A stretch of 64,000 nt of DNA from Octopus vulgaris (Eukaryota), in NCBI GenBank assembly GCA_951406725.2, contig OX597832.1:21452001-21516000 (forward strand). The letters are read 5' to 3'. Below the pieces are notes generated by a model. That model was not told where the DNA came from. It did not search any database and saw only the letters and a program-made list of their open reading frames with translations. The position numbers were made by a program, and so were the translations under genes. Each line of letters opens with the position of its first letter. Positions within the stretch are counted from its first letter, which is position 1. Shown in pieces: positions 12,390-61,480 of the stretch.

Positions 12390-12467
12390 CTTGGGACAAT
12401 TGTTTCGCTATTAATGAATTAAATGTAATATTACTTACAGCAATCCATTTGTAGCTCTTCAGCCAAG
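12390..12467 (-). ncRNA. Type I hammerhead ribozyme, copy 1
   Basis: CTTGG-CTGAAGA-GCTA..TAGC-GAAA-C-AATT-G-TC-CCAAG: full core, stem I CTTGG/CCAAG, palindromic loop III, GUC cleavage site between 12395 and 12394. Confidence 0.9.
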
Positions 12468-12924
12468 GCTATCTTGATGAAATCCACTCAATCACACGCC
12501 AGATTTTACCATAACGATAATTACGCGTGCGGTTCAATTGATTACATCGGACGTTATAATTCAAATGCCCCAACCAACAGCGCGCCAAACTCTCACGGAA
12601 AACAAAATACAGCATTTAGAAATAAATGCAGCATAATTATAATTAATTAATAAGGGTGAGAGAATTAGATACTAATTTAATAGTATATTTATTCCACACC
12701 AAGTGGCCTAGTGCTACGAGAAACCTGGATTATTATAATATTTTATAACATATTATAATATTTTCACAAAATAAATATAAGAGAGTGTTCACTAAATTGA
12801 TCACTCTAGCACCAGTTAATCCAAGAGGTTTCAACCACGAAAAATACATGTTTCCCATGAAAGCCGGTACGACTGTTAGCTCACACGGACAGGGCAAATA
12901 AAAAATAACAAAAATACAGATTAT

Positions 12925-13002
12925 CTTGGGACAATTGTTTCGCTATTAATGAATTAAATGTAATATTACTTACAGCAATCCATTTGTAGCTCTTCAGCCA
13001 AG
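12925..13002 (-). ncRNA. Type I hammerhead ribozyme, copy 2
   Basis: Same sequence as copy 1, offset +535. Confidence 0.9.
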
Positions 13003-13459
13003 GCTATCTTGATGAAATCCACTCAATCACACGCCAGATTTTACCATAACGATAATTACGCGTGCGGTTCAATTGATTACATCGGACGTTATAATTCAAA
13101 TGCCCCAACCAACAGCGCGCCAAACTCTCACGGAAAACAAAATACAGCATTTAGAAATAAATGCAGCATAATTATAATTAATTAATAAGGGTGAGAGAAT
13201 TAGATACTAATTTAATAGTATATTTATTCCACACCAAGTGGCCTAGTGCTACGAGAAACCTGGATTATTATAATATTTTATAACATATTATAATATTTTC
13301 ACAAAATAAATATAAGAGAGTGTTCACTAAATTGATCACTCTAGCACCAGTTAATCCAAGAGGTTTCAACCACGAAAAATACATGTTTCCCATGAAAGCC
13401 GGTACGACTGTTAGCTCACACGGACAGGGCAAATAAAAAATAACAAAAATACAGATTAT

Positions 13460-13537
13460 CTTGGGACAATTGTTTCGCTATTAATGAATTAAATGTAATA
13501 TTACTTACAGCAATCCATTTGTAGCTCTTCAGCCAAG
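13460..13537 (-). ncRNA. Type I hammerhead ribozyme, copy 3
   Basis: Same sequence as copy 1, offset +1070. Confidence 0.9.
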
Positions 13538-57146: not shown

Positions 57147-57199
57147 TAACACACACACACACACACACACACACACACACACACACACATACATATCTA

Positions 57200-57608
57200 T
57201 TCTTTTATTTGTTTCAGTCATTTGACTGCGGCCATGACTGTGGCCATGCTGGAGCATCGGCTTTAGTCGAGCAAATCTACCCCCAGGACTTATTCTTTGT
57301 AAGCCTAGTACTTATTCTATCGTTCTCTTTTCCCGAACCGCTAAGTTACGGGGGACGTAAACACACCAGCACCGGTTGTCAAACGATGTTGGGGGGACAA
57401 ACACAGACACACAAACACATACACACACATACACATATACATAAATATATACGACGGGCATCTTTCAGTATCCTCAACCAAATCCACTAACAAGGCTTTG
57501 GTCGGCCCGAGGCTATAGTAGAAGACACTTGCCCAAGGTGGCATGCAGTGGGACTGAATCCGGAACCATGTGGTTGGTAAGCAAGCTACTTACCACACAT
57601 CCACTCCT
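57200..57608 (-). mobile_element. Full-length family-B SINE
   Basis: Colinear with 16441-16865. Confidence 0.9.
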
Positions 57609-60600
57609 ATATGCATGCATGTATATATATATATATTTTTATATATATATATATATATATTTACATGCATATTACTCTACCTCTGGTATTTGATTACTTT
57701 TCCTACCTTGTTTCACATTTATGTGCTTACTCTGGTATATATATATATATATATATATATATATATATATACGCATATATGTACGTAAATATGCAGGGAC
57801 TTGCGAATATAACATTCAAGCATATCCATGTATTAACTTATGTGCTCGCGTGTGTATGTATGTGTGTATGAGAATGTGTGTGTGTTTGTGTGTGTGTGTC
57901 AGTAGGTGTAATGCATATCGGGAGAAGCAATGGGGAGGGAGGGAGAAGATTGGGGAAGATAGAAGGAGGGAGGATATATGTCTATGTAACAGATAAGAGG
58001 AACGGAACAAACAGTGGGAAGAGATCAAGGCAAAATGCAAGGGAAAATCAGAATTAACAGAGATTGTGACTTAACAGAGAAGGATTGAGGAGGGAGGGGC
58101 ACGGAAAAGAAAAAAAAGAGCCAAGACTAAAGGAAAAATAAATACAGAAAACATCAAACAAACAAACAAACAAGCAAACAAGAAAAAGAAACGAAAGAAA
58201 GAACATGGAAATAAGTGTAAGTACGGAAGGTATTTTTTAAGATCGGCGATACGTAGCAATTGGCGAGAAATTAACTGCATTCATTGGCTAATTACGCGTT
58301 CGCTATTGCCATGTTATAGAAGGGTTCGTCTCCGCATGCGGGAGCGTTCTCTGAGGCAATCAACAGTCTTCGAATGCTTTCATCGTAATGGCGGAATACT
58401 GGATTGTAACGGGTTATGTCGCAATCGGAATCCAGTGAAAATGTGGATTGTCTCCCTTTATGTCTGCATTTTATGAATATTTTGCTTGCGAAATAGTCTC
58501 ATCCGACTAAAGCGTGAATGTATTAAAACACGTATATGTATATGTATTCAGAGATAGATAGATGGATAGTTTTATATATATATATCTCCATCTCTATCTA
58601 TCGAGATATATATATATATATATATATATATATATATATATCTCGGTAGATAGAGATGGAGATAGATAGATAGATAGATAGATAGATAGATAGATAGATA
58701 GATAGATAGATAGATAGATAGATAGATAGATAGATATACATGCAGATATATGCATACAGTCCTTCCTATATAATTATATGCATGTAATACACACGCGCAC
58801 TCGTACACATGCACGTACATATATATAAATATATATGTGTGTGTGTGTGTGTGTGTGTGTGTGTGTGTGTGTGTGTGTGTATGTGTGTGCTCTAGTATTG
58901 TCTAGTATTATCTTTTATACATGTGTATGCGTAGAAATATATACATACATATATAAATATATACTCTTTTATTTCTGAGATATATTTTCTTAAGTTTTTT
59001 TTTGTCTTTTTATAAAGATTGAACGTTTGAATTACGAGCACTCAGTTGGACTCAGAAACTCTCTCTATATATATATATATATACGTACATGCAGACAGAC
59101 AGATAGATTTTGATATATCGATATAAATATTTATATATATACGAGTACTTATATATGAAAACACATACATATACACACTATGTTTATGTATATATATATA
59201 TATATATATATATATATATATATATATATATATATATATATATATATATATTTGTGTGTGCGTGTGTTTGTGTGTGTGCATGTTTGTGTGTGTGCATGTT
59301 TGTGTGTGTATATATACATATACATATATATATTTATATATTCATATATAAATGTATGTATGTATACAAGCATATATTCATGTCTGGATGTATTTATTTA
59401 TGCGTGCGCGCGTGTGTACACATGTGTGCTCTGCATCACAAACAAGTAAGCATCTAAGATTACCAACTACCGTGGATCATCTCCGCCACCACCACCACCA
59501 CCACCGGCAACAGCAACAACGCCGCCACCACCTCCTTCAGCACCCACAGGCACACAAACACCTCATTTGCATATATTCATTGAAGATCCAAGGTTTGAAG
59601 TTCGTTATGAAATATTTGTCGATTACTCTAAAAAAATATATCTGAAACGAAGTCCCTCGCTGGAGCTCCCCCTCACCCCACCCAAGACCCCCACCACCCC
59701 GTTTCAATATCGGTATCAGAGAGAGGCTGGGTTTCGATAGAGAAACACACCAACATATATTTATACACTCCATGTGTGTATATATGTGAGCGTGTATGTG
59801 TGTGTGTGTATGCATGCATGCGAACACCCCAGCCTTCCACACACACATACGAATTTATATATATAAACTTGATAATACACAAATATATACATAAATATAA
59901 ACATACATATATATACATACATATATATATGTATACATATATATATATATGTATATATATATATATATATATATATATATATATATATATATATATATAT
60001 ATATATATATATATATATATATATATATATACTGTCTTTCAAGATTTATAATGTCGTTTGAATAATGCTCGAAATTATTAAGATAGTCAACCGAAAACAG
60101 ATGAACAGCTCTTATACTATGTTAACTTGTCCCGTTTTCTATTTTTCTCGTTATTTACGTATTTCACTCGCTTTTGTCCTGTAATTACTGTCCACATTGT
60201 GTGTGTTATTTGCACCGTTGGTGACGTCCTCACTCATATGTGCATCTCTCTCTCTCTCTCTGTCTCTCTCTCTCTCTCTATGTATATATATATATATATA
60301 TATATATATATATATATATATATATATATATATATATATATATATACATATAAGATGGATGACCACTCACTAAGTGTACATCTATATGCTAGAAGTCAAC
60401 TCTTTATGGTCTTAAGAAGAGAATGTTCTCAAGAAAATTTAGCAGAACGTAAACGAGCAAGAAGAATGAAAAGATACAAAATATTATTATTATTATTATT
60501 ATTATTATTATTATTATTATTATTATTATTATTATTAGTCTGATATGATATAATATTTTGGAATATACAAATTCCTTCTTCAGATATCGCATATATGTGT

Positions 60601-60671
60601 ATGTGTATATATATATATATATATATATATATATATATATATATATATATATATATATATATATATATATA

Positions 60672-61480
60672 TAATATGTTAAACAAAATGAGGCAACGAA
60701 GCCAAGGCTGTGTGGAATTTATAGGACATTTATAAAGAGAAAGTTAGTCTTACACCTGTTTCTGGGATACTAGGGATATCCCTTCATCAGAGACGATATG
60801 AGAGAGTTAGCTAGAGGGAAATAGTATAGTTCAATATAAGGAGTTATTTCGGAAAATGATGGATATAGGTGGTATAATGGGAAATAAGAGATAAAAGTAA
60901 AAATATATGTAGGATGTTACAGATGCAGTTCCATTATCCAAGGAAAGTACTGTGTAGAATGGGTAGAAATGCTTCTTGTCCATGGTATGTAGATTCCGAT
61001 AGGAGTTCCTTTTTTGGTATTATAAGCGGATAGTGTGGAGATATAAATTCCATGTGCTGTCATTCATAGGGGTCTTATGGTGTGAATGAAATTTTGAGAG
61101 CGTACTGGTAGGGGCAAGTAGATAGAGAGAAGAGAATAGATGTGTATGTTAGGAGGAGAATGGTATTGGTCAAAAGGAATAGGGGAGGAAAGAAGAAAGA
61201 AAGAAAGAAAGAAAGAAAGAAAGAGGAAGAAAAAATGGAAAAGGAGTATTAGATGATGGTCAAGATATTGTTAGGAGGATTGGAGAGGAGAGCCATCAAG
61301 TTAAAAGGAATAGGGGAGGGACAGAAGGAGGAGATAGGAATATAAGGAAAGAATATGTGTAAGAAGTGGGAGGTGGGGCGATATTTTTCAAAGGTACTAA
61401 GGTGGGGAGATAGGTAAGGAAAATATCCTATAAATTCTACGCAGCCTTGGCTTTGTTGTCTCATTTTATTTAACATGTAC
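60672..61480 (-). mobile_element. Penelope-like relic with inverted terminal fragment and HHR
   Basis: 60676-60730 recurs inverted at about 61424-61479; abuts (TA)n. Confidence 0.7.
60747..60794 (-). ncRNA. Type I hammerhead motif
   Basis: GTCT-CTGATGA-AGGGATA-TCCCTAG-TATCCCA-GAAA-C-AGGT-G-TA-AGAC; A-A at the base of stem II. Confidence 0.75.

Follow-up and report, generated by a model that had tools for sequence, protein, structure and literature searches.

A population of hammerhead ribozyme motifs in Octopus vulgaris was examined starting from a 64-kb stretch of contig OX597832.1 (assembly GCA_951406725.2, positions 21,452,001 to 21,516,000; hereafter the window). An earlier note on this stretch had placed hammerhead motifs at nine sites. 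Our analysis suggests that these motifs are probably the hammerhead-bearing ends of Penelope-like elements (PLEs) together with non-coding derivatives, made by the PLE machinery, and that the tandem arrays of one family were each written from a single template. We searched the genome (2.8 Gb in 227 contigs) for seven families, named by their motif in the window: A (12462, 12997, and 13532), B (18763), C (31556), D (35191), E (37963), F (47633), and G (60790). Comparisons with published work refer to the portions of each cited text that were available.

Hammerhead motifs were more frequent in the window than in shuffled sequence. Our strict type I descriptor required the exact core CUGANGA/GAAA/UH, a helix I of at least 4 bp, a helix II of at least 3 bp, and an insert of at most 80 nt. 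It gave six matches at four loci, all on the minus strand (12462, 12997, 13532, 35191, 37963, and 60790), compared with a mean of 0.02 and a maximum of 1 in 100 block dinucleotide shuffles of the window. With one core mismatch allowed, there were seven matches, adding 18763 on the plus strand, and 30 shuffles gave a mean of 0.1 and a maximum of 2. Intactness at all nine sites did not hold up: six motifs were intact, 18763 carries a core mismatch, and the window copies at 31556 and 47633 are decayed, the latter lacking the 3' half of helix II. The conserved core at a three-way junction with an open helix I was found for A, D, E, and G in the window and for F in the family majority. The seven families are unrelated in sequence, as had been claimed, with no blastn match among them in the window. 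Rfam at gathering thresholds had no matches across the window, and an Rfam scan of the A motif with E-values up to 10 found no hammerhead. An Rfam scan of the window by E-value was set aside as microRNA noise driven by microsatellites (best 150 of 485 rows), which make up 27% of the window.

The same excess was found across the genome. We sampled 80 stretches of 10 kb at round coordinates, with the descriptor widened to the U3-A8 core, and found 16 motifs in 799,900 bases, compared with 0–2 in each of eight shuffles. Helix III was palindromic in nine of the 16 sampled motifs versus one of eight shuffled matches. The density is approximately 20 per Mb, or roughly 50,000 genome-wide by extrapolation, and the window (six motifs in 64 kb) is richer than the sampled average. 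Across every fetched locus, 109 distinct motifs fell into 32 clusters, 21 of which had a palindromic member; some singletons among these clusters are likely chance matches. First-look candidates numbered 849 for A, 404 for B, 381 for C, 503 for D, 391 for E, 4394 for F, and 2220 for G; per family, 40 candidates were scored and 25–30 fetched. With helix I relaxed to 3 bp, the descriptor passed 24/30 copies of D, 18/30 of G, 25/25 of E, 8/25 of F, 2/30 of C, and 1/25 of B. A large and diverse ribozyme retroelement population that targets (TA)n, as the earlier note had proposed, is supported by these counts and by the flanks described below.

In all seven families, the 5' ends varied while the 3' ends fell at two fixed places, a short site and a tail site, separated by approximately 37 nt (F) to 130 nt (A and G). 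Many insertions, including those of B, C, E, and G in the window, also had an inverted arm that ran away from a truncation point in the middle. The arms of a two-armed insertion used different 3' sites, one the short site and one the tail site, in 97 of 98 cases (A 21/21, D 9/9, B 15/15, G 13/13, C 10/10, F 11/12, E 18/18). Dropped from this tally were duplicate rows (two each for D, C, and E), one ambiguous B insertion, and three F insertions with broken inverted arms; some tails in it were shortened, the F query contained the tail, and BLAST end calls of E, which run through (TA)n, were not used for the 18/18. A motif-based end check resolved 14 two-armed A arrays, of which 13 were discordant between arms, and the lone array scored as the same (L343) owed this to internal point changes. 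This one-end-per-arm rule ties the two start sites known in vitro to the two strands of the target.

Insertions were concentrated in (TA)n. Of 129 copies from five families, 89 had TA immediately after the 3' end (D 22/28, B 17/24, G 15/28, C 10/24, E 25/25), compared with a background of 2.4%, and 25 of 32 A arrays were flanked by TA on both outer sides. The claim that all motifs abut microsatellites was too broad: element 3' ends abut (TA)n in six families, but the motifs themselves are 4–645 nt from a microsatellite, TA followed the 3' end of F in 0/25 copies, and the (ATT)n tract of F is internal. Distance from motif to microsatellite was uninformative as an enrichment test, the background being too high (median 141 nt in the window). 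We favor PLE insertion as the explanation because the insertions have 3' ends in fixed pairs, 5' ends truncated at variable points, inverted arms, and (TA)n flanks, and because this genome holds intact elements encoding reverse transcriptase (RT) and GIY-YIG and G is linked to a GIY-YIG-like frame.

Family A provides the clearest view of how tandem copies may arise. In the window, its array (12236–13648, minus strand) consists of a 535-nt non-coding unit repeated head to tail in 2.6 identical copies, with a (TA)n tract on either side; it is 5'-truncated at unit position 202 and terminates at the short 3' site. The three type I hammerheads (12390–12467, 12925–13002, and 13460–13537, minus strand) match the strict descriptor, and copy 1 has a 5-bp helix I, a 49-nt helix II hairpin, and a palindromic helix III, with cleavage predicted between 12395 and 12394. 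The unit has 34% guanine plus cytosine (GC), and a 23-mer from it has 537 exact matches genome-wide. Units were 97%–100% identical among first-fetched loci and 100% identical among the three in the window, and the family is very young. The head-to-tail junction was found in contigs from four of four independent runs. Arrays were dispersed and short (1–10 units), with precise PLE ends, and unit length was constant inside most arrays and 532–535 nt between them. Among 20 two-armed A arrays tallied, the 5' truncation points of the arms were at most 50 nt apart in nine, with approximately four expected if independent.

Sequence variants within A arrays suggest a single template for each array. We examined 32 of roughly 165 arrays, the latter total being extrapolated from 31 arrays that together held the 100 listed matches. 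Across the 27 arrays with at least three copies of some site, private variants were fixed in every unit 12 times (in 11 arrays, and on both arms in 7), restricted to a single unit 34 times, and partial four times. Variants common to several arrays were fixed 105 times and mixed four times, and the 27 arrays carried 22 haplotypes. We therefore infer a frequent one-unit bottleneck, with arrays that are not mosaics of an RNA pool and with both arms derived from one source. The simplest reading would be that one monomer-length template was read repeatedly, primed once at each start site. With approximately 537 near-identical units in dispersed young arrays, and with rival models that differ in the variant patterns they predict, genome sequence by itself is enough to test the question.

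The strongest competing explanation retains the PLE machinery but takes as template a linear multimer, transcribed from a uniform array already in the genome and left uncleaved, with the hammerhead a passenger and no circle formed. A uniform source array would give uniform daughters too, and the active fold was absent from the predicted fold of the A monomer (probability 0.07 for helix I and 0 for helix III). In vitro, hammerhead mutants left insertion unimpaired and no Anolis reads ended at the cleavage site (PMC11167929). We nevertheless regard this explanation as unlikely, as it leaves the frequent fixation of single new variants unexplained (22 haplotypes in 27 arrays; 34 one-unit versus four partial variants); with new variants so often fixed in all units, a one-unit bottleneck is needed at some step. 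Less probable again is that insertions begin with approximately one unit per arm and later expand as DNA, by unequal crossing-over or slippage, like ordinary satellites. Local tandem amplification after insertion is favored by Li, Clavereau & Pollet (2026 preprint 10.64898/2026.07.22.740005), and the four partial variants fit some later duplication or conversion. However, the one-unit variants of older arrays show no nested sharing (14 single-unit differences in L343), single-unit variants outnumber partial ones 34 to four, and the dispersal, the 1–10 units, the precise PLE ends, and the unit length that is constant within and 532–535 nt between arrays are unlike such expansion. It is very improbable that the motifs, lying in DNA rich in microsatellites, are chance matches or artefacts of assembly, although three of nine fail the strict descriptor, three A units are 100% identical, and shuffles yield 0–2 matches per 0.8 Mb, since six matches were found versus 0.02 expected, families have hundreds of copies, the A junction recurs in four of four runs, and compensatory changes are present; for A, D, E, and G this explanation is refuted.

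Under the preferred reading of PLE-made insertions with single-template A arrays, a PLE RT/GIY-YIG protein would nick (TA)n on both strands, and two complementary DNAs would be primed, one at each of two fixed RNA sites. Published work suggests that the palindromic helix III would pair two hammerheads, that tandem transcripts would be cut to monomers, and that these would be ligated to circles. The variants suggest that each A array would be written from one monomer-length template read again and again, either a circle or a linear monomer re-entered by jumps, and that both arms would be copied from the same RNA molecule. A more specific version, to which we give slightly less than an even chance, is that A is an active retrozyme whose arrays record rolling-circle reverse transcription. 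A dimeric PLE enzyme, with a subunit assigned to each start site, would use a single circular RNA to prime the two target strands and write both arms, and the long-helix-II hammerhead of A would represent a widespread subclass missed by current models. If this is true, hammerhead counts in such genomes, and claims of PLE families without hammerheads, need revision.

Several observations weigh against this account. Most copies of B and C fail on the type I core and helices (1/25 and 2/30 pass), and element ends do not fall at the predicted cleavage site. Among the four partial A variants, one is limited to one arm (L333, 6/7), and with only 32 of approximately 165 arrays sampled, some "private" variants may mark unsampled source lineages. 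The frame associated with G falls below the Pfam GIY-YIG cut-off (E 0.0027; 18.4 bits versus 22.6), and the search for partner elements gave none for families A–F. Hammerhead cleavage was dispensable for PLE insertion in vitro, where uncleaved RNA was the main substrate (PMC11167929), and eight of nine tested frog retrozymes failed to cleave (Li, Clavereau & Pollet, 2026 preprint 10.64898/2026.07.22.740005).

Many of these hammerheads differ from described forms in the length of helix II. Inserts of 34–79 nt occurred in 12 of 32 clusters, all with a palindromic or near-palindromic helix III, and measured 49 nt in A, 52 nt in D, and 54 nt in C. When these 12 clusters were folded, seven reached a z-score of −2.4 or lower and five did not. 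Such a long helix II explains how Rfam, and descriptors limited to short loops, can overlook these ribozymes. By comparison, a long helix II is put at 6–8 bp in PMC13725137, and the helix II described in PMC4209133 is 7–8 bp, versus the 34–79-nt inserts here, which are mostly extended hairpins where tested. Naiad PLEs, suggested as a possible source by the label HHR_half_core, were not supported in that role, with five 12-mers of window families giving no relevant match in the available supplement of PMC8557442. In the 3' end of the published Naiad_Ovul consensus, read by eye from the part available, GAAA precedes CUGAUGA within a stem and the sequence resembles none of families A–G; this core order suggests a topology other than type I.

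The helix III insert is palindromic in most families. Family-majority inserts were CAATTG (A), CGCGCG (D), CAGCTG (C and G alike), and CG (F), while the insert of B is an unusual near-palindrome of 7 nt whose central base is unpaired, and that of E is an imperfect palindrome of 14 nt. The proposal that loop III is usually a different palindrome is thus borne out for the palindromic majorities of A, C, D, F, and G but not for the distinction between C and G, nor for B and E. The suggestion that AGGT in the window copy of G is an altered AGCT was right, with CAGCTG in 13 of 18 passing G copies and the window copy decayed. As a monomer hairpin, helix III had a computed energy of +2.4 kcal/mol; paired between two molecules, it had −6.4 in A and −13.3 in D. 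Dimeric PLE hammerheads were reportedly the subject of a 2017 study. Circular folding gave z-scores of −6.0 for A and −5.4 for D, and one of eight control windows reached −4.9, which offers modest support for a predicted self-paired circle.

Compensatory changes were seen among relatives of A, D, and G. The fifth pair of helix I in A was changed on both sides, from C-G to U-A, in contigs from two other organisms, and the sole listed core change of A in other species was at the free N7. A relative of G had an inverted helix III pair with the palindrome kept, and a relative of D had helix I changed on both sides and a U3-A8 core; D and G relatives alter helix I and helix III bilaterally. These changes, which are not forced by the descriptor, are a small number of events rather than a covariation statistic. 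Substitution rates were lower in the core than in the flanks (D 0.010 versus 0.022, G 0.018 versus 0.049, C 0.015 versus 0.086, F 0.004 versus 0.046), but we did not count this as evidence because copies had been picked by likeness to a core-containing query. The comparison leaves out B and E, whose flanks include inversion junctions.

Families A and D have the features of non-LTR retrozymes (LTR, long terminal repeat), with non-coding head-to-tail units, a type I hammerhead in each, and low GC, and we classify them as such on these grounds. The D copy in the window (34933–35665, minus strand) is a permuted unit of approximately 597 nt ending in (TA)n, with an intact hammerhead at 35115–35197; it is broken at 35294–35527 by a short interspersed element (SINE) with a 10-nt target duplication. 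The period of approximately 597 nt was visible as partial tandems. Family E (37906–38096) is a fold-back insertion between (TA)n tracts, with its hammerhead (37918–37970, minus strand) on the short-ended arm and the tail on the other arm; the element is approximately 145 nt long and began at helix I in the 25 copies examined. Family B (18507–18826) is a two-armed insertion in a microsatellite, with a hammerhead-like motif at 18755–18800 (plus strand) and a non-canonical core in which U4 is altered. Family C (31071–31846) is also two-armed and holds a decayed hammerhead-like motif at approximately 31550–31632 (plus strand). The hammerheads of B and C may be inactive because the majority core of B has C in place of the conserved U4, and because helix I of C is weak; family B has hundreds of copies nonetheless.

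Family F (47520–47918, minus strand) is an abundant SINE-like family with a PLE hammerhead tail and PLE-type inverted arms, as also observed at L223, L226, L235, and L236. The window copy has a remnant tRNA-like head, internal (AAT)n, and a minimal hammerhead (47608–47638) with half of helix II deleted. The order in the family is tRNA-like A/B-box words, (AAT)n, and then the hammerhead, and the 3' end does not lie in a microsatellite. B-box-like words were present in 11 of 25 copies and A-box-like words in four of 25; ARAGORN called no tRNA at 20 loci, and Rfam had no tRNA match on the one copy scanned. The family was present in 13 of the 80 sampled 10-kb stretches. From this arrangement, we propose F as a candidate RNA polymerase III (Pol III) parasite of PLEs. 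Schistosome Sm-alpha elements are SINE-like hammerhead repeats, and F resembles them in joining Pol III A/B-box-like words to a hammerhead-bearing tail. It differs from Sm-alpha in its minimal PLE-type hammerhead, PLE inverted arms, and internal (AAT)n, and no tandem arrays of F were seen.

Family G (60676–61474) provides a probable link to coding PLEs. It appears to be a 5'-truncated 3' untranslated region (UTR) of a GIY-YIG-encoding PLE, with an inverted arm at 61421–61474 and a hammerhead at 60747–60794 (minus strand). We consider G likely to be the truncated 3' UTR of an autonomous-type PLE because long copies run approximately 2 kb upstream into a decayed GIY-YIG-like frame, genomic relatives of which numbered 150 of 150 scored. 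The G 3' region lay downstream of this frame in the same orientation at four of five loci tested, with no intact RT seen there. A GIY-YIG-like frame was associated with G, at a Pfam score below the cut-off, and no PLE frame in register was found upstream of A–F among 195 family loci. The description of all loci as one class of mini-element does not hold: it is wrong for G, F is SINE-like, and most copies of B and C fail the descriptor. Beside G, an extra hammerhead-like motif at 60540–60590 (minus strand), with G12 changed to A, adjoins (AAT)n and had no second copy in any fetched locus.

A young intact PLE was observed elsewhere in the genome (L246:1929–7171), with a 359-aa upstream frame, a 781-aa RT plus GIY-YIG frame, and a U3-A8 hammerhead-like motif. 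Its pseudo-LTRs are 456 bp long and 99.3% identical, and 16 copies with the full 781-aa frame were counted among 148 GIY-YIG rows. This element has no sequence likeness to families A–G, and its ends are unlike any of theirs. In a tblastn search of the 781-aa protein against the 195 family loci, two matched, neither in register upstream of a hammerhead, and none lay in the window.

Many features of these families have been reported for PLEs. Hammerheads with palindromic helix III, dimer folding, and many families per genome were described in PLEs, with a circular template proposed (Cervera & de la Pena 2014, PMC4209133). The families here share with those pseudo-LTR hammerheads a type I topology, a short palindromic helix III, many divergent families, an extra nucleotide at the base of helix II (F and G), a U3-A8 core variant in the genome, mostly single truncated copies, and opposite-strand pairs 100–700 bp apart. 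Inverted arms, one-ended tails, and (TA)n bias are known for PLEs (Craig et al. 2021, PMC8557442), and in vitro work found two RT start sites bounding the tail, with both strands nicked and extended at AT-rich DNA and a dimer predicted (Frangieh 2024, PMC11167929). Consistent with both studies, the insertions here show partial tandems and an inverted 5'-truncated arm, often carry a tail on just one of their ends, fit two RT start sites, and sit in AT-rich or (TA)n targets. Tails here are approximately 37–130 nt, compared with 30–40 nt in published PLEs, and one end per arm was counted here (97/98). In an octopus, 31 recently active Penelope-like families have been described, with no mention of ribozymes in the available main text (PMC13282606).

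Retrozymes provide the second point of comparison. Circular RNAs of retrozymes have been shown and tandem complementary DNA from circles proposed (Cervera & de la Pena 2020, PMC7229834), and Li, Clavereau & Pollet (2026 preprint 10.64898/2026.07.22.740005) tied retrozymes to PLE pseudo-LTRs. Shared with animal non-LTR retrozymes in these two studies are non-coding tandem units, one type I hammerhead per unit, GC below 45% (34% in A), a highly self-paired predicted circle, and a unit length inside the 51–972 bp range of Li et al. Units of A and D exceed the 150–450 bp first described, and the circle here is a predicted one. Unlike published non-LTR retrozymes, the arrays here are two-armed, carry PLE tails, and lie in (TA)n, and array-uniform variants are not reported in the available text of those studies.

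PLE pseudo-LTR hammerheads, non-LTR retrozymes, palindromic helix III, dimer folding, many divergent families, and (TA)n preference are thus already published (PMC4209133, PMC7229834, PMC8557442). A circular-RNA route for retrozyme or PLE tandems has been a proposal since 2014, and the sole in vitro study found cleavage dispensable (PMC11167929). The earlier note was a correct catch that over-generalized on intactness, mini-elements, and microsatellite targeting. What the present analysis adds is the hammerhead variant with a long helix II, the rule of one end per arm, and a single-template pattern that can be tested. Literature searches (including octopus with hammerhead, long helix II, twin priming with circular RNA, and rolling-circle evidence), whose coverage left out most subscription papers, gave no earlier report of families A–G in octopus, of long helix II inserts, of the one-end-per-arm count, or of the array-variant argument.

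Other repeats in the window belong to different classes. A SINE of 184–231 nt is present in more than 15 copies (28491–28908, 41569–41981, and 63387–63981, among others), several of them in head-to-tail tandems of 184–185 nt; one copy is the insertion that breaks family D, and we take this SINE to be an octopus repeat. Two frames at 56091–57115 (plus strand) presumably derive from a decayed mariner transposase, judging by their motifs. A 215-aa frame at 61660–62307 (minus strand) is, we assume, a fragment of a pogo/Tigger-type transposase, which it resembles.

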